A stretch of 64,000 nucleotides of DNA from an uncultured Hormoscilla sp. Lineage in GTDB: Bacteria > Cyanobacteriota > Cyanobacteriia > Cyanobacteriales > Desertifilaceae. The stretch lies in assembly GCA_963921275.4 (NCBI GenBank), contig OZ001293.3, forward strand, positions 5,920,001-5,984,000, written 5' to 3'. Positions 54,930-63,694 of the stretch are shown here, one piece after another. The translations under genes and the position numbers were made by a program. Positions within the stretch are counted from its first letter, which is position 1. Every line of letters begins with the position of its first letter. The notes beneath the pieces are model-generated. The model did not search any database, had not been told where the DNA came from, and saw only the letters and a list, made by a program, of their open reading frames with translations.

Positions 54930-56987
54930 TTATTTGCCATTACTATTGTCATTCATGGCTAACACCCGTTCCGCGAGCTTATCTGGCACCTCTTGTAGGT
55001 GGTCGTACTTCCAGTTAAAGAAGCCTACCCCCAAAGTACCCGATCGCAGTTCAATAATAAAGTCCTGCATTTCGGCCTGGGGCAAGTAAGCCGAAACCTT
55101 ATCCCAGCCCTGCCAATCTGAGACAGCATCATAACCCAAAATCTGTCCCCGACGGGTAGTAACTAGCTGCAACACTTTAGAAGTAAACTCGCTGGGTGCA
55201 GTCACCTCAATAGCCGAGATCGGTTCTAGCAGAGTCGGTTGACACTTCGGCATTCCCTCGGTCATGGCGATGCGGGCAGCTTGCTTAAAAGCTTGTTCGG
55301 AACTATCAACCGAGTGGTGAGAACCATCAGTCAGAGTTACCGCCACATCCACCACCGGGAAACCCAAGGGTCCCCGTGCCAGATACTCCCGCACCCCCGT
55401 TTCCACCCCAGGAATATACTGCTTCGGCACCACGCCACCGACAATTGTTTGGCTGAAACTAAAGCCTTCCCCCCGTGACAGAGGTTGAATATCTAGATAG
55501 ACATCTCCAAACTGGCCGTGACCGCCACTTTGATGCTTGTAGCGCCCGTGTATCCGCGTTGCTGGTTTGCGGATCGTTTCCTTATAAGCAATGTGGGGCA
55601 AGTGGGTATGCATCGGCAAGTTGTACTTGCGCCGCAGCCGTTCTAGACTTACCTTCAGATGAATTTCTCCCTGACCCCAAAGGATAACTTCGTGGGTATC
55701 GCCATGCTGTTCCCAGTAGAGGGATGGGTCTTCTTCCAGCAACTTCGCCAAAGCACCCGATAGCTTCACTTCATCGTTGCGCTTTTCTGGGGCGATCGCC
55801 ATTGCATAAACTGGGGGTAGCGGTTGTGCCCGAGGCAGTTCTTTCACCTTAGCATCAGTAGAGAGGGTATCTCCGGTTTTAGTCTCCTCCATCCGGGCCA
55901 GGGCCACAATTTCACCAATTCCAGCTTTTGCTAGGGACTCCTGTTGTTGTCCGAACAAGCGGTAAATGCCACCCGCACGCACGCCATTGAGCACCATACC
56001 ATCAGTCAACTCGCCCCGCCAAACTCGCACCAAAGAAAACTTGCCTCCTTGGGGAGTATAATAGGTTTTCAATACCTGAGCTAAAGGCGTGTCTAAGGAG
56101 GTATTAACTCCTCGGCGTTCGGAAGTAGCAGCAGGGTCGGGTGCTTCCCGCCGCAGGACATCTAGCAGCGGTCGGACCCCAGCACTTTGTTCTGCCACGC
56201 CCAGGAACACGGGTACAATCAAATCTGCCCTCAGTTCCATCTTCAAATCTTTGACAATTTCCTCTTGGGATGGTTCAATTTCCTCTATCAGTTCTTCCAG
56301 CAGATGGTCGTCAAAGTCCGCCAAAGTTTCTAACATTTGGGTGCGTGCCTTTTTCTCCTCCTCTTGGAGAGACTCTGGCAGCGGCACTGGATCTGCCGGG
56401 GCACCGGGATGGTAATGATAAGCTTGTTCGCTCACCAGATCGATATATCCCACCAGTTCTTGTCCTTTGCCGATGGGATATTGATGAGGGATGACTGGAC
56501 GACTAGAGACAGTCTTCAGCGCCTTGAGTATCTCTGTAAAGCTAGTGGCGCAGCGGATCTCCTCCGTACAAACCCGGTCCATTTTGTTAACAAAGACCAG
56601 GTGCGGAATCTTCCAGTCATCCAGGAACTTAAATAATGGGGCGAGGGCGAGTACCCGATCAGGTTCCGGTTCGCAGACCACCACTGCTGCACCCACGCCC
56701 ATGAGGGCATTATAGGTTTCCTGGGCAAATTCTACCGAACCCGGGCAGTCCAGAAATGTGAAGTGGATCCCTTCACAGTCAGTGCTAGCAAAGTTCACCT
56801 CCACAGTCATCTGGCGCGATCGCGCCTCTGGGGAACCATCCCCCACCGTATTACCTTCTTGCACGCTCCCTTTGCGGGAAGTTGCGCCAGTGACATGCAG
56901 CAAACTTTCTAGTAGAGTGGTTTTACCGCTTAAATACGGGCCTACAATGGCCACATTGCGACTGTCCGATAGGACTTTTTGGTTCAT
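54930..56987 (-). CDS. Elongation factor G-like paralogue
   Basis: Variant G1 GPYLSGKTT, DCPG, NKMD, GQGEIHL, YKHQSGGHGQFG, VDSSEQAF. Confidence 0.92.
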   Translation of the reverse strand: MNQKVLSDSRNVAIVGPYLSGKTTLLESLLHVTGATSRKGSVQEGNTVGDGSPEARSRQMTVEVNFASTDCEGIHFTFLDCPGSVEFAQETYNALMGVGAAVVVCEPEPDRVLALAPLFKFLDDWKIPHLVFVNKMDRVCTEEIRCATSFTEILKALKTVSSRPVIPHQYPIGKGQELVGYIDLVSEQAYHYHPGAPADPVPLPESLQEEEKKARTQMLETLADFDDHLLEELIEEIEPSQEEIVKDLKMELRADLIVPVFLGVAEQSAGVRPLLDVLRREAPDPAATSERRGVNTSLDTPLAQVLKTYYTPQGGKFSLVRVWRGELTDGMVLNGVRAGGIYRLFGQQQESLAKAGIGEIVALARMEETKTGDTLSTDAKVKELPRAQPLPPVYAMAIAPEKRNDEVKLSGALAKLLEEDPSLYWEQHGDTHEVILWGQGEIHLKVSLERLRRKYNLPMHTHLPHIAYKETIRKPATRIHGRYKHQSGGHGQFGDVYLDIQPLSRGEGFSFSQTIVGGVVPKQYIPGVETGVREYLARGPLGFPVVDVAVTLTDGSHHSVDSSEQAFKQAARIAMTEGMPKCQPTLLEPISAIEVTAPSEFTSKVLQLVTTRRGQILGYDAVSDWQGWDKVSAYLPQAEMQDFIIELRSGTLGVGFFNWKYDHLQEVPDKLAERVLAMNDNSNGK

Positions 56988-57448: not shown

Positions 57449-60108
57449 TTAGCGAAAGGGGGCGATCGCAAACAGCAGCTCTTTTCTAAGATTGGCTGAC
57501 ATAGCTTGATTGCTCTGGGCGATCGCGCGGTTTATTTCCTCCATCTGTGCCCGATCGGGTCTGGAAAACTGAGAGTTGTACCGCCGCAGCCATCTTTGCA
57601 GATAATCTTCACCTAAGTGGGCGATCGCCCTATCCTGACTGCCACAGGCCCAAATCAAAAAAGCCAAACTTTCCCACTTACCCAGTTTTGCTAGCAAAAA
57701 CTGGGCATTTTTCCTCACGTGGAAGCGCGGATCTTCCCGAAAAATATTCCCCAGACGCTCAACACCAACCAGTCTTGCTCGACCCAGTAGGGCCTCACGT
57801 CCAGCGCGAGATATACTGGGGCGATCGTCTGTTAGGGCCTTGACAAATAGATCTACCAGAACATCTCCATTCAACTTAGCAGCAGACGGCAGTGGGGCAC
57901 AGCAAACTTTCGGGTTAGGGTGAGAACAGAAGGGAACGACTGCATCAGCATCGATCGCGCCACCGATATCCCCCAGACCCAAAAGTGCCCCGCAAAGTTG
58001 ACTTTCGACATTGCTAGTCAGGCCATGGCGATAGAATGCCGTGAAATCCATTGGGGCAATTTTGTTCAGGTAATAGCGGGCTAACTCGCGGATGGAACTG
58101 TGGCGATCGCATAAACTCAAGTGTAATTGTGGCGGTGCTTGGGCGGGTAACTTTTTTACGTAAGCTTGCAGTGCTTCCCGGCTAGCGATGTCTCCTGTTG
58201 TGCTCTTGTCCCCAGGGGACTCGGCACACAGGAGACATCGGACGGGCATAAACCGGTTCCCGCTCATTTTCAACAAGAAGCTGCGAACCATAGCCCCCTC
58301 GAATTCCGAGCTAATTTTTCTTGCCACCCACAGTCTAACAGTGCTATCTCCATCTGCGATCGCCCGATCGAGCAGCCAAAGCTTTTCTATTCCTGCCGAC
58401 TCTGCTGCTATATGAAAGCAACAGCGCCTGACAACTCGATCTCTTGATTTCAATCCCGTCAGTAATGCATCATTACATTCTGCACTTGAGTAACTCAAAT
58501 ACCGATTCCATCAGCCAGCGGCGATCGCGTGCAGCCGGATCTCGGCGCATCTGTAATCTCGATATGAGGGCAAGATTCCTGTGCGATGAGTTCCAGCCTA
58601 ACGTAGTCATATACGGAACGCTGGCCTAGGAAACTAGGAACTCTGGTAATCATGGGGGTTTAATTCCCCCTCCCCAGGTACAGGGGTAACCGCGTGAGGT
58701 GCTGCGAAGTAACATCATCGTGGTGCCAAGCGAGGACTCAAATGTAGGATAACTGGCAGCCCAAGCCGGTGACTCTGCTAGGAAAGATGTCCATGGCTAG
58801 AACAAGCGAACCTATGTAAACCTCGTTAAACCCAACCAGCGAAATAAGGCTTAATGCGCTGGAACAAAAGTTAATGCAGTTAGTGTTAATTAGGGAATTG
58901 GCTAACATTGTACCCAAATAACTGCCGGGGAAAAGTAGGGGCCTAAAGGCATCGTGAAATGATACCAGGGAACGAAGTAACCTCAGCGAGAGGAACGAAG
59001 TAACCCCCGTGGTGCTGTCCTCATTTGGACAAGTCAGATGTGCGTCCGCGTAGCGTGCGCGCAGCGCATAGCGCATGCCCATGAGGGGAGAGATGGCCCG
59101 AGAAGCTAATGCCTAGGCGGTGTCTGGAGCATGCCTTGGTGTCTGGAGCACACCGAGTCCTTCAGGACAAGAGTGTGCGGAAGACGCCAAAGTCCTTCAG
59201 GACAAGAGCATGCGGAAGACGCCGGTAATGCCTATGGATACGCAGACGCGGGTCGGTGATACTAGTAAACTATTGGTACAAGTAGCTCTAAAATGTCATA
59301 AGCCCATTTACAGCGTTAGCGAAAGCGAGTTGAGGATTGAGGAATGTTTAACTGGTAAAACGGAGTGTTAAATGGTGATACTAAAGGTTATCCGGCAGCT
59401 CCACTCACCAACCAGGAAAGGGGCGGACGTGCAAGTAGTAAGGGACAATGGGAGTAATCCCTAGTAATCCTACCCGTGAAAGGGGCCTAGTACCCAGTAG
59501 CCGTGTGCGGTGAAAGTCGCATGCACGGTTCCGAAAGGGAGGGTTGTCCCGCGAGGGACAGCTCGACCCCGACTGACAATCTCCGGAGCCTATTCTGGAA
59601 TCAATCGTCTTTCCAAGGCTTCTCTTGCTGCCTCGCGCACATTAATTACCCAGTCATACAGGCGAATTAGCAAAAAAGACAATTCTGCACCATTAGTAAA
59701 TTCTGCCAGTTTCTTCACCGCCGCCTCTCGCACGTAGCCACTCCTGTGAAAACTCGCCAATCCTAGAATTGACAGGGACGACGAACCAAAGCTGAGTAGA
59801 TAGTCTATCTTTTCTGGAAGCAACTCTTGCCATTTCCATCGCATAAATTCATCTAGCCAGAGCAACTCAGCAGGAGATATAATTTTAACTAAACTTTGAA
59901 CTGCTTTAGCTGCTGCTGTTGCCAATTATGGTCTTTCCACAAAAATCAAAGGTATAATGTGAGGAATTGCTGCTGGTTCCTGAGCTTGAGCAATCTGTTC
60001 TAACTTCTTGGATAGGTCATCGTATTTCCCAAACAGCCTTTGCAAAAGACCGTTCCGGGGATCCAGGCGATCGAGCAAAGCCAAGGTTTTATCTGAAATG
60101 GTTCTCAT
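57449..60108 (-). pseudogene. HEAT-repeat-like protein with several lesions
   Basis: SGYVREAAVKKL...LLIRL.DWV..VR.AA; stops at 59926 and 59590; antisense intron at 58581-59573; frameshift at about 58490; palindrome insert at about 58187-58240. Confidence 0.75.
58581..59573 (+). mobile_element. ORF-less group II intron, divergent relative of the other two
   Basis: 5' GTGCG; domain V TAGCCGTGTGCGGTGAAAGTCGCATGCACGGTTC; domain VI ending ACCCCGAC; EBS1 loop AGGGAATT against flank GATTCCT. Confidence 0.92.
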
Positions 60109-60147
60109 AACAGGGCTATTTCCTTCAAGAAGCGATTATCAGATATA

Positions 60148-60440
60148 TTAAGCGATATGAAGATCGCAGCGTTCGAGATAACTGCGGGCGGCCCGATCGC
60201 CCTCATAATATTCCAGGCATTCTTGAAATAAACGCGCCGCTTCTTGAAGAATGCCGTTCGGATAATACGACTGCCCTTTCAAACTTCGTATTCGTCGCCA
60301 TTTTGGCCTCTTTGAGTTCTGGGGTATCGGCGGCAAAGACTTCAAATAACTGCTTCAGCTTTTCCGCTCTTCTGTCACTCGGTCAATAAATCTTAACTCA
60401 GATTCTCCGGGATTATTTAAACCTTGCCTTTGATAGGTGA
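60148..60440 (-). pseudogene. 3' remnant resembling a class III adenylate/guanylate cyclase C-terminus
   Basis: Across frameshifts reads LRFIDRV...FEVFAADTPELKEAK...A.RLFQECL....DRAARSYLERC. Confidence 0.55.
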
Positions 60441-60497
60441 TTAAACGTGAAGCCCCAGCCAAACCAATTATTGACCGGGTTCCAAAGAGTTAATGAT

Positions 60498-61958
60498 TCA
60501 ATTGATAACTTTCCAACCCCGAACGAAATTCTTCTTTTCCATTTCCAACCATAATGCTTCGATCTGTTCTTCGGAATTACTCACTCGGATCTCACGGGAA
60601 AGCGGGTCTTTGCGGTTCGGGCTGAAGTCTGTGAAATGCAGAACATATGCGGGATATTCATCGGAAGACTCCTTATTGGTTTTCCACATGACCAGTTTTC
60701 TTACCATTTCAGCGCCTTTCAGGGTTTTGGTTGCAACTCGACGTTTCAACAGCGTACTTTCAGGCAATTTGTATTCTTTTGCCGATATATCCGCCAGCGG
60801 CACTTCAACTAAGTCGGTTATTTGTTCGATCCTTAAATCTTCGGGATTCACGGATTTATCTTCCCGGAATTTCACGAACTGAGGTGAAATCACATTGGCT
60901 AAAGGCATGCGTCTGATGACTTCATAGCATTTTTTGGAAGCATTCCAGTTCAATACCATTTTGTCTATAGTCCCCTGCCTGGTAGTTTCGGCAATCAGGT
61001 CCAAACAGGATAGTTCGATAATGTATTTCGGTTCCACCATGCGATATGCCACACGATCGGAATTGACTTCGGAATATTCACTATCCACGACGATATCTTT
61101 GAGATCCGAAAGCAGGTTCCGGCGCATTTTTTCCGTAAATCCACCGCCTACATGAGTCAGCAATTGAAAGGTTTCATCCTTTCGCATGATTCCCACCAGA
61201 ACGTCATGAAGCATGCGATCGTCCGTACCTTCGGTAAAACCCAGTACGATCGCATCGATATTATGCCGGGGCTTGATTTTGAAAATACCACTGGATTTAC
61301 CTCGAACCACGACACCTTCAGCGCCTTCATTTTCCACCCATTGCTCGAAATATTCCTTAATTTGAGCGGATTTTTCACCGATAACCGTTTCAACCGGATG
61401 GATATTTTTACCGTTGCCAAATATTGCCGCGATCGCATTCCAGGAATCGGCATACACGGGATATGTTTTTTTGTCACATTCCACGATATCGAACACGGCA
61501 AATTTAAGCCGTTTTACCTCCGATTCATTTTCCGGTTTGCGTGCAATGACCATGACGTCACGAACCCTGGGCCGTGTTTTATCTTCATCCGGCTGCACAT
61601 ATAATTCTCCGGCGATCGCGGCTTGTTTGATTCCGGCTTTTTTCAACAAACTGGCGGCTTCTGCCATGAAATCAAGTCCGGTTCTCACCGTACCGCCGGG
61701 ATTGACCGTAATGGCGCTTTCGCCGTCAAACAGGAGTACGGTAAATTCTCCGTCTATTTTGCGGCTGATATGATAGTTATCCGTTGGGATTTTTTGGGAA
61801 ATATCGGATTTGTCCAGCGGTCGCATAGTCGCCGCCATTTTCCGGCGAAACATTTGCACTTTCGGATGTAACATGGGATCTTTCAGAGCATTCGCCGGAC
61901 CTGTGGCATAATTGCCGATTTTATAGACCAATCTCGAGCGATCGATAAGTGTATCCAT
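60498..61958 (-). CDS. ATP-dependent DNA ligase (adenylation + OB) with a C-terminal WGR-like domain
   Basis: Motif I RKIDGE, III AGELY, IIIa FAVFDI, IV EGVVVR, V FKIKP, OB-fold DAIVLGF...VGGGF...PQFVKFREDK; ATG at 61958 after GGAAGGGAAG. Confidence 0.88.
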   Translation of the reverse strand: MDTLIDRSRLVYKIGNYATGPANALKDPMLHPKVQMFRRKMAATMRPLDKSDISQKIPTDNYHISRKIDGEFTVLLFDGESAITVNPGGTVRTGLDFMAEAASLLKKAGIKQAAIAGELYVQPDEDKTRPRVRDVMVIARKPENESEVKRLKFAVFDIVECDKKTYPVYADSWNAIAAIFGNGKNIHPVETVIGEKSAQIKEYFEQWVENEGAEGVVVRGKSSGIFKIKPRHNIDAIVLGFTEGTDDRMLHDVLVGIMRKDETFQLLTHVGGGFTEKMRRNLLSDLKDIVVDSEYSEVNSDRVAYRMVEPKYIIELSCLDLIAETTRQGTIDKMVLNWNASKKCYEVIRRMPLANVISPQFVKFREDKSVNPEDLRIEQITDLVEVPLADISAKEYKLPESTLLKRRVATKTLKGAEMVRKLVMWKTNKESSDEYPAYVLHFTDFSPNRKDPLSREIRVSNSEEQIEALWLEMEKKNFVRGWKVIN

Positions 61959-61975
61959 AATCAATTCTTCCCTTC

Positions 61976-62677
61976 CTAATCACCAGGTTTTTTAAGTTCC
62001 ATCTTGGAAAGATGGAGGATCAATGCATATTTGTCATTTTGAGTCCGGCCTTCCAGGAAGCCCCGGTAGGGCGTAGCGCCTCGACGAAAAATCAAAGGCT
62101 GGTTTCCTTTAGGGCCTCCTCCCAGCAACATCAGGCAGTCTTTGTCTTCCAACTCCTTTGCTATGGCATACAGAAAATCATAAGTTAGTCCGTTGATATG
62201 GGTAATTTGAAGTTTTCCGGAAAAAACGAACTTATTGAATACTTGCGATTTTTCCATCTTTTTCCCGGTCCATTTCAAAGGAATTTCCGTAGCCGTGTTC
62301 GGTTCGGGCATTTGCCTCGGTCGTTTCTCCCGTTCGCTGCCGTCCGGGTTTTTAATTATTTCATTTTGCACGATCCGATGAACGATTTCCCTTTTCGGAT
62401 CGATATATACCCGAGCCGTATTTTTCAAAAAACTGCCGTATGTTTCTATATCGATTTCCGGGTCTTCATTTATCAGCGCTTGCGTAAGGTTCTCCAAATC
62501 GCCGTATTTTTCAAGCAAAGCATCCAAATCCCGATCCATCGTACCTCTTAGAATTTTTTTGGTTTCTGCCTGGCTGCCATGCATATCTATCCAGCGCATT
62601 TTCAAAACCGGTGAAACTGATTCGGTACTTACGGCTGCATCGCGACCCCGGCTGTTACTGATATTTATTGTTCCCAT
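61976..62677 (-). CDS. Hypothetical protein, putative divergent Ku-fold subunit B
   Basis: Intact 233-aa ORF with AAGGA RBS; C-terminal pattern resembles the Ku core by eye only. Confidence 0.6.
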   Translation of the reverse strand: MGTINISNSRGRDAAVSTESVSPVLKMRWIDMHGSQAETKKILRGTMDRDLDALLEKYGDLENLTQALINEDPEIDIETYGSFLKNTARVYIDPKREIVHRIVQNEIIKNPDGSEREKRPRQMPEPNTATEIPLKWTGKKMEKSQVFNKFVFSGKLQITHINGLTYDFLYAIAKELEDKDCLMLLGGGPKGNQPLIFRRGATPYRGFLEGRTQNDKYALILHLSKMELKKPGD

Positions 62678-62698
62678 GATAGTATTCCTTATAATGAT

Positions 62699-63313
62699 TT
62701 ACATCATGCCAAAATCCATATCGTCATCTTCTTCGATTTCCTCCTCCGCCTCTTCGACGGCAGCGGTTTGTTCGTATCCTATAAAATGAATTTCGGTTTC
62801 CTTTCCTACCAGCATCCAAATAGTATCGTCCGTACCTTTCAATAGAAATGCCGTATCCGGTTCCAGTCCGCTACGATAACTGAATGTAAACGCATAAATA
62901 GCGCCGTTTCCGAGTTCATCTAGTAACTTTGTATCTAATTCTGTTTCACAATTGAGCATATAAGAGGAACGAATATTGAAATTCAGGAATTCATCTATGG
63001 TAACTTTTCGTTCCAATGGATTCGGCTGATTGAAACTCGATTGAACGGGTTTTATTTCATTGCCGTCGAAATCCACGGGTTTGAGGTTTGATTTGTCGCA
63101 CCATTCCCCGTTTTGTGAAATATAAGCCAAAGCAGTGCCTCCCTTGCCGATCAATGTTTTTCCATCCCCGGCTAAAACTGCCATTTCACAAAGGTTCCCA
63201 TCCTCATCAAGGGTTTCGATATCGACCGAACCATATAATTTGCTTCGATCCACTTTTGCAAGTGAAAATGGGATGTCCTTCCCGTCATATGTTAAAACCA
63301 GTGGCTTTGCCAT
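62699..63313 (-). CDS. Hypothetical protein, putative divergent Ku-fold subunit A, acidic tail
   Basis: ATG at 63313 after GAGGT; pattern resembles the Ku core by eye only; ends EEAEEEIEEDDDMDFGMM. Confidence 0.6.
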   Translation of the reverse strand: MAKPLVLTYDGKDIPFSLAKVDRSKLYGSVDIETLDEDGNLCEMAVLAGDGKTLIGKGGTALAYISQNGEWCDKSNLKPVDFDGNEIKPVQSSFNQPNPLERKVTIDEFLNFNIRSSYMLNCETELDTKLLDELGNGAIYAFTFSYRSGLEPDTAFLLKGTDDTIWMLVGKETEIHFIGYEQTAAVEEAEEEIEEDDDMDFGMM

Positions 63314-63694
63314 GTGCTGCACCTCATTATTATTTTTTATTGTCCGAGCAATTACAGACGACACTCCCCAAGAGACGGGCGATCGCCCCCCTAGGCCATC
63401 TTTCTCCTCAATGTCTCCTGTGTGCCGACGGAATTAGGGACCCCAGGATATTCCCTGGCGACTCTCTCTCTCAGCCACGCCGGTTAATATACCCATGTTC
63501 ACCGCTCAAGTCAAGCCGTTGTACATTTTCGTCAATCCCTAGATTTTCTAGCGTTTCCAGAATGGTGACCTTGGTGAAGAATAAGCCAAACATAGCGCTA
63601 ATATGACTCCCACAGGCTCCATTACCCATTTCTTTGGCGATTGAGAGCAACCCATATCTATCTTGCCCAGAAATTACTGGATTTTATGCAAGAG

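Follow-up and report, generated by a model that had tools for sequence, protein, structure and literature searches.

The locus and its genes

The window analyzed here is a stretch of 64,000 nucleotides from the genome of an uncultured cyanobacterium, Hormoscilla sp. (contig OZ001293.3, positions 5,920,001–5,984,000); coordinates below are those of the window unless a contig or locus is named. Its minus strand carries three consecutive open reading frames (ORFs), called A, B and C, none of which has an internal stop. Gene A (62699–63313) encodes a protein of 204 aa with a predicted Ku fold, an acidic core, and an acidic tail with a conserved D-[LM]-M-D-F-x-M motif. Gene B (61976–62677) encodes a second predicted Ku-fold protein, of 233 aa; its core is basic, and it has the longer insert of the two between barrel strands 2 and 3. 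Gene C (60498–61958) encodes an ATP-dependent DNA ligase of 486 aa, counted from an ATG, with adenylation and OB domains. The three genes, referred to as the triad, are likely a real, conserved and previously undescribed variant of Ku-ligase end-joining.

The genes are closely packed, with gaps of 21 bp between A and B and 17 bp between B and C. A purine-rich word resembling a ribosome-binding site stands before each: GAGGTG (63320–63325) for A, AAGGA (62686–62690) for B, and GAAGGGAAG (61967–61975) for C. A preliminary description of this DNA, made by inspection of the sequence, had reported an intact, co-oriented operon with these two gaps and a ribosome-binding site for every gene, and the ORF list bears this out.

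The triad is single-copy in the host genome and is found at the corresponding chromosomal position in three Hormoscilla relatives. The closest named relatives of A and B are Hormoscilla proteins at 93–95% identity. One public contig matches positions 59599–63598 with no differences, though it may derive from the same source sample. In one metatranscriptome, short contigs about 92–95% alike cover each of the three genes in part, with a depth of 2–4; transcription is not demonstrable from these.

Predicted structures of the A and B proteins

The structure matches for A and B rest on AlphaFold monomer models, which have a mean predicted local distance difference test score (pLDDT) of 80.6 for A and 71.2 for B. 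When these models were compared with the PDB using Foldseek, every row listed was a Ku-containing entry, for A and for B alike. The best match for A was the Ku protein of B. subtilis (9vnq_A, E 2e-5, TMq 0.45), and the best for B was Ku80 (9cq6_b, E 9e-6), with the M. tuberculosis Ku reaching a template modelling (TM) score of 0.49. A VIA comparison, which re-scored entries within Foldseek's top 1000, aligned both models with the bacterial Ku 9i91_B: A over its residues 2–170 (Z 11.1, root-mean-square deviation 4.8, 155 residues aligned) and B over residues 4–177 (Z 13.1, root-mean-square deviation 4.0, 168 residues aligned). For B, Ku80 and bacterial Ku were tied in Z. A search of a viral library with A gave two matches at E≤0.001, both of them phage Ku proteins.

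A and B are each predicted to consist of a Ku/SPOC beta-barrel with an arm insert. The barrel, which had been set beforehand as the structural test of the Ku proposal, is found in both models by Foldseek and by VIA. The insert that corresponds to the Ku arm, or bridge, follows the second barrel strand and covers residues 28–101 of the A model and 21–133 of the B model, where it includes three predicted helices. Alignments to SPOC-only barrels cover ca. 100–113 residues, 50–60 fewer than alignments to Ku, so the match extends beyond the barrel into the Ku arm.

The preliminary description had read by eye an order of helix, strand, helix and three strands in both proteins, and the models agree with it. 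In A these elements are a helix at 106–110, a strand at 112–122, a helix at 128–135, and strands at 139–144, 153–159 and 165–172. In B they are a helix at 143–149, a strand at 150–159, a helix at 163–178, and strands at 181–187, 204–213 and 216–228. The peptide motifs quoted from A and B are likewise present in their translations. Where the preliminary description went astray was in calling the two proteins Ku-core sized. Both are shorter, aligning only to about residues 2–177 of M. tuberculosis Ku. The last chain residue aligned is 170–186 for A and 177 for B, and the post-barrel helices of Ku (about 180–230 in M. tuberculosis) are missing; B ends with its last strand and A with a disordered acidic tail.

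Sequence families and conserved residues

By sequence, A and B have no matches to a family of note in Pfam, NCBIfam, PADLOC or PHROGs, and none in the PDB, whether searched by sequence or by profile. In the ESM Atlas, A matched one unnamed cluster at 0.75 and B matched nothing. A search of the host genome with the Ku profile PF02735 also found nothing, while the B. subtilis positive control was matched.

The A family comprises 239 proteins and the B family 1852 at 90% clustering; at 50% the B family forms 596 clusters. B is the better conserved of the two, with a mean pair identity of 57% compared to 49% for A. The cores differ in charge, with a median of −12 in A and +5 in B, compared to −2 in canonical Ku. 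Each protein has a strongly conserved arginine, R147 in A (131 of 137 sequences) and R199 in B (130 of 137). Two other basic residues of A also fall at predicted DNA-facing positions: R23, conserved in 129 of 137 sequences, and R115, which is arginine or lysine in 112 of 137. At the C-terminus of A is a DLMDF-like motif, with D200 in 131 and F201 in 133 of the 137 sequences. It resembles the DLMxAL of canonical Ku, a resemblance only, as the profiles did not align there. Some B homologues carry a Lys/Ala-rich tail comparable to the extended one of bacterial Ku.

There were no A-B fusions among the best 150 of the 596 B representatives. One protein that looked like a B-C fusion (P0342) was set aside because it appears to be a frameshifted or misassembled join of the two genes. 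Covariation between A and B, calculated from 136 pairs plus the window, gave no clear contact pattern and was underpowered, with an effective number of sequences of 88 for 415 columns. A few pairs between A161–177 and B212–220 ranked high in this calculation, made without a shuffle control; their rank is not evidence of contact.

The ligase

C matches the DNA-ligase OB domain PF04679 at 31.7 bits, above the cut-off of 27.5, and a C profile searched against the PDB found 33 sequences, all of them DNA ligases, the best being 3rr5, 9dfa and 2cfm (E 3e-15 to 5e-14). The preliminary description had credited this gene with all the motifs of an ATP-dependent ligase. None of the residues concerned varies among 65 aligned homologues; grouped by motif, they are K67, D69, G70 and E71; E118; D157; E214 and G215; K227 and K229; and R365, D367 and K368. 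All NCBIfam ligase models scored far under their cut-offs, including TIGR02779 (48 of 228 bits) and TIGR02776 (37 of 373 bits). In Pfam and NCBIfam, the 486 aa of C match ligases only, with no polymerase or nuclease domain. A search of the host genome with PF01068 gave no match, and no other ATP-dependent ligase was seen there.

C ends in a conserved domain of 90 aa (60501–60770, minus strand) with a mean column identity of 67%. It has no convincing match in the PDB or Pfam, and none of 66 members matches the Pfam WGR domain (PF05406). Compared by hhalign with 26 WGR domains, only the last 25 columns aligned (P 4.5%, E 0.009), making the last helix weakly WGR-like. The host genome has a single WGR-domain match (G000:C1:148783–148989, L081), in an open frame of 972 aa that is not linked to the triad. 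In one protein (P0321, 381 aa), a B homologue is joined to this ligase C-terminal domain by a Pro/Ala-rich linker. A Lys/Ala-rich tail is found on 25 of the 66 C homologues.

Gene linkage and distribution

A scan of GTDB, with 591 pattern matches, identified at least 549 stretches that encode B. The tallies that follow concern the best 80 of these stretches, which lean to close relatives. They comprise 56 from Planctomycetota, 10 from Verrucomicrobiota, 5 from Myxococcota, 4 from Cyanobacteriota, 2 each from Spirochaetota and Pseudomonadota, and 1 unassigned. Among the 73 loci with more than 900 bp of flank, A is immediately upstream of B in 67 and the full A-B-C order is present in 61; C is immediately downstream of B in 70 of the 80. 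The triad is thus conserved in other genomes across several phyla, a point on which the preliminary description had staked its proposal. Metagenome loci are similar, with A adjacent in 49 of 53 and C in 44 of 51.

Where the genes are not adjacent, they are still retained. A was found elsewhere in the genome in all five cases tested (of six such loci), as was C in all five tested (of ten). In Oscillatoria sp. SIO1A7 (L002:8714–12430), ca. 3.7 kb of other DNA lies between B and C, and in L061 the separation is 2 kb. The A-B-C order is kept in divergent members of the family (L096, L099–L102 and L104–L106). Two genomes have two or three triad copies each, some strongly divergent: G427 (L100, L104 and L106) and G446 (L102 and L105). 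When loci are compared in pairs, the identities of A, B and C rise and fall together (Spearman 0.62–0.74 for 60 loci plus the window), although shared ancestry explains much of this.

When 1049 ORFs from the 80 loci were clustered, no fourth conserved gene was found. The next cluster after the triad, found at 19 loci, was rejected as a fourth gene because it consists of antisense shadow ORFs over A and B; the remaining clusters were present at ten loci or fewer.

The distribution is sparse. B is encoded in 7 of 251 Planctomycetota genomes, including the seed genome, and the triad was found in none of 300 other cyanobacteria searched. Because of this absence, the cyanobacterial triad was probably acquired horizontally. 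In a tree of C (FastTree, midpoint-rooted, no support test), sequences group largely by host lineage, and the cyanobacterial copies lie beside those of Verrucomicrobiota and Leptospiraceae, a placement compatible with horizontal acquisition, though the tree does not name a donor.

Canonical Ku (PF02735) was found in 11 of 50 carrier genomes, representing 50 of the 80 loci, and was absent from the other 39. Some of the canonical genes in Planctomycetota are paired: four genomes (G367:C252, G393:C223, G412:C2 and G483:C68) have two canonical Ku genes ca. 0.8 kb apart, and a fifth (G473:C94) has two separated by 2 kb. These tandem pairs are Ku3/Ku4-like and lie outside the alphaproteobacteria.

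Proposed function

A and B probably form a heterodimeric Ku-like ring that brings a dedicated ligase to DNA ends for the joining of double-strand breaks, an interpretation to which we assign a probability of about 0.6. The two proteins would intertwine their arms, and a heterodimer is suggested because A and B are co-retained and have opposite net charges. B would supply most of the basic DNA-binding surface. R147 of A and R199 of B would lie in the hairpin that carries the minor-groove residue R161 in B. subtilis Ku (PMC12784961), a mapping derived from strand order; the fold together with the conserved arginines suggests that A-B binds ends. The ligase could be tethered by the acidic tail motif of A, by its own C-terminal domain, or by both. 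Bridging of the ends may depend on the ligase and not on Ku oligomers, because the GLVNIP loop and the filament helix are missing. Because there is no polymerase or nuclease domain, the system might join clean, compatible ends or borrow processing enzymes from the host.

Several results weigh against this interpretation. The first are the sequence comparisons. PF02735 at E≤1 matched none of 112 A homologues and none of 91 B homologues, so that the profile check proposed in the preliminary description came out negative for both. By hhalign, A and B matched an alignment of 12 Ku sequences with probabilities of 0.1–0.4%, which is no sequence-level link to Ku. A compared to B gave 0.03–1.3%, no detectable relation; the earlier remark that the two share little obvious identity was correct. 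The second are the models. The insert or arm of B is predicted with low confidence, in part with pLDDT below 50, and TM-scores to Ku are 0.39–0.49. In the VIA comparison, SPOC-only domains (Z 9.1 for A and 11.8 for B) and, for A, INTS13-INTS14 (Z 9.5) lie within 1–2 units of the Ku match, and INTS13-14 is described as a Ku-like dimer outside end-joining (PMC11377751). With the post-barrel helices missing, the stability of a ring is not assured. A relaxed pattern for the GLVNIP-like filament motif was found in 0 of 112 A and 0 of 148 B homologues compared to 10 of 12 canonical Ku proteins. No end-processing gene, whether polymerase, phosphoesterase or nuclease, recurs in the flanks.

The third are the signs of selection and replacement. 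The ratio of non-synonymous to synonymous substitution rates (dN/dS) is 0.22–0.36 relative to L002 and L003, which counts in favor of the interpretation; relative to the closest relative, L001, it is 0.62 for A and 0.94 for B, with few changes. B is frameshifted in Hormoscilla GM7CHS1pb (L012), which may be a long-read error. Canonical Ku was found in 7 of 33 triad-bearing Planctomycetota compared to a background of 39 of 251, with no visible replacement of one system by the other. This comparison indicates that the triad neither needs nor visibly excludes canonical non-homologous end-joining (NHEJ). The 7 B-positive and 39 Ku-positive genomes among the 251 do not overlap, with about 1 overlap expected. 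Mutual exclusion of the triad and canonical Ku was considered and rejected as unshown, given the 7 of 33.

A different use of a Ku-like A-B complex and its ligase is unlikely but has some evidence in its favor. The complex could seal nicks or gaps, as in LigC-like excision repair, or it could cap or circularize incoming or excised DNA. C lacks polymerase and nuclease domains, and the solved structures closest to it by profile are nick-sealing ligases of the replicative type; the filament motifs are missing from A and B, and 11 of 50 carrier genomes have canonical Ku as well as the triad. Excision repair is given as the main role of LigC (PMC7470946). The neighborhoods do not fit, with no glycosylase, PrimPol or nuclease recurring beside the triad. 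A ring of the Ku type must thread onto DNA from a free end, a requirement established for Ku.

It is slightly less probable again that ends are joined without a heterodimer. The basic B protein would then bind ends as a homodimer, and the acidic A protein would use the same fold as a regulator, as a DNA mimic or as an adaptor for the ligase. The strong charge asymmetry of the two proteins, the better conservation of B, and the fusion of B, not A, to the ligase C-terminal domain (one case) are all compatible with this. But A retains both a full Ku-like arm and the basic residues at predicted DNA-facing positions, and A and B were co-retained in every split case tested.

A role in phage defense or in protecting the ends of mobile elements, in which the triad would act like Mu Gam to shield or ligate the ends of invading DNA, had been raised in the preliminary description as an alternative and is improbable. 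Its patchy spread (7 of 251 Planctomycetota, 0 of 300 other cyanobacteria) would suit such a role, as would a divergent triad at the end of an IMG/VR contig (L096, 1–6939), beside terminase-like and serine-recombinase-like genes named by eye. Neither neighborhoods nor viral contigs lend support overall: PADLOC matched none of the three proteins; of the flanking ORFs searched against it (133 of 165 selected) just 5 gave a match, mostly through generic kinase, helicase or specificity domains; the flanks (82 scanned) contain varied ordinary genes; viral contigs hold a single locus among 21 pattern matches; and in the ligase tree most sequences cluster according to their host lineage. The triad on the viral-collection contig is a possible vehicle for horizontal spread.

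That A and B are SPOC-like barrels that form no ring and serve as protein adaptors, with C perhaps acting on RNA, is very improbable: SPOC-only domains are close in Z and C has a sub-threshold match to the RNA ligase family PF09414 (24.5 bits, cut-off 27), but both A and B have an insert of 75–110 residues at the position of the Ku arm, alignments to Ku are longer by 50–60 residues than those to SPOC domains, and the DNA-ligase OB domain of C passes its cut-off, while all 33 of its PDB matches are DNA ligases.

A stronger version of the heterodimeric Ku-ligase interpretation can be put forward tentatively. A-B would be a third kind of Ku: an obligate heterodimer of minimal size, with an origin separate from those of eukaryotic Ku70/80 and Sinorhizobium Ku3/4, in which the acidic A recruits the ligase, the basic B grips the DNA, and the ligase C-terminal domain replaces the lost helices. 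Hundreds of species now scored as NHEJ-negative would then have an end-joining pathway, the second one defined in bacteria. This is possible, though doubtful as a whole.

Neighboring features

A sigma-70-like site, TTGACT-17-TATATT, lies ca. 170 bp upstream of A on the minus strand (63486–63514). With 10 of 12 matches it is a possible operon promoter, but the promoter scan was at chance level, finding 4 sites compared to 6.9 expected in shuffles. In Hormoscilla GM7CHS1pb a gene of the RRXRR-HNH (IscB-like) type is inserted immediately upstream of A (L012:6016–7287).

The HEAT-repeat gene downstream of the triad (57449–60108) is interrupted by an in-frame stop (59926–59928) and by an insertion of 996 bp (58580–59575), which is repeated at full length and nearly unchanged at three or more other places in the genome. 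The same gene is a single ORF of 536 aa in Hormoscilla GM7CHS1pb, and the base at 59928 differs in other strains. The preliminary description had stated that most accessory genes in the window are broken, which is true of this gene, the one neighbor examined. At 54930–56987 is a gene for a 685-aa protein that, judged by eye from the sequence, resembles elongation factor G.

Significance

No description of the A-B-C family was found in open-access papers or in the main texts of bioRxiv preprints, though it may be mentioned in supplements or in subscription journals. Surveys of bacterial NHEJ use Ku and LigD profile searches; in one, hidden Markov models seeded from P. aeruginosa gave NHEJ in ca. 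22% of genomes (PMC7719229). The A-B family escapes such profiles, with at least 549 GTDB stretches encoding B and 39 of 50 carriers lacking canonical Ku.

If the triad does join ends, both the census of bacterial NHEJ and the account of its evolution would need revision. To our knowledge A-B would be the smallest Ku ring, if a ring forms. It would also open to experiment the transition from a homodimeric to a heterodimeric Ku, and the bridging of ends in the absence of Ku filaments. As a compact three-gene kit of 2.9 kb, the triad could also be tested for its use in repair during the editing of genomes in laboratory bacteria.

Comparison with known systems

Ku with an operon-linked ATP-dependent ligase is the established form of bacterial NHEJ (PMC1378119). 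The triad resembles the canonical Ku and LigD systems of B. subtilis and M. tuberculosis in its predicted Ku barrel with an arm insert, the ligase in the operon, the Lys/Ala-rich tails of many homologues, and the sporadic distribution. The differences are equally clear. Canonical Ku is a homodimer encoded by one PF02735 gene, while here there are two different genes, neither of which has detectable sequence similarity to PF02735 or to the other. Canonical Ku has the post-barrel helices and the GLVNIP loop, and A and B have neither. These elements are reported to form the filament interface in the Ku proteins of B. subtilis and M. tuberculosis (PMC12784961, PMC12658125), with filaments abolished by mutation of the loop but not of the helix (PMC12658125). 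The C-terminal region of Ku that contains DLMxAL is ascribed a ligase-related role (PMC9638933). LigD has polymerase and/or phosphoesterase domains; C has neither, carries its own C-terminal domain, and reaches only 48 of 228 bits on TIGR02779. The basic tail is often on the ligase in triad loci, unlike in canonical Ku and LigD.

LigC and the WGR-bearing ligases of Planctomycetes and deltaproteobacteria share with C a minimal adenylation and OB core, an appended small domain, and some of the same phyla (PMC7470946). Ku-like partners are not mentioned for the WGR-ligase cluster in the accessible sections of that report. C differs in that no Pfam WGR domain was found among the 66 C-terminal domains, only the last helix being WGR-like. 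INTS13-INTS14, which have their role in Integrator, and SPOC domains have the same barrel fold (Z 9.0–11.8), but they are eukaryotic, they align over the barrel only (ca. 96–113 residues), and they have no linked ligase. Eukaryotic Ku70/Ku80 is a heterodimer of divergent Ku-fold subunits, as A-B may be, and Ku80 chains are the top structural matches of B. A and B lack the vWA, SAP and C-terminal arm domains and have ca. 10% identity to the eukaryotic proteins, and descent from these is not indicated.

Operons with two Ku genes and a heterodimeric bacterial Ku have both been proposed before (PMC1378119, PMC6379672). The preliminary description had given bacterial Ku as a homodimer, but a heterodimer has a precedent in Ku3/Ku4 of Sinorhizobium. 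In Sinorhizobium meliloti, Ku3-Ku4-LigD4 likewise has two co-encoded Ku proteins, a proposed heterodimer with a ligase, and genes that always co-occur and are often in an operon (PMC6379672). By that description Ku3 and Ku4 are ordinary Ku orthologues working with LigD (PMC6379672), while A and B are truncated and invisible to Ku profiles. Heterodimerism alone is not new; what appears to be new here is a truncated pair of Ku-fold proteins, hidden from profile searches, with a ligase family of its own.

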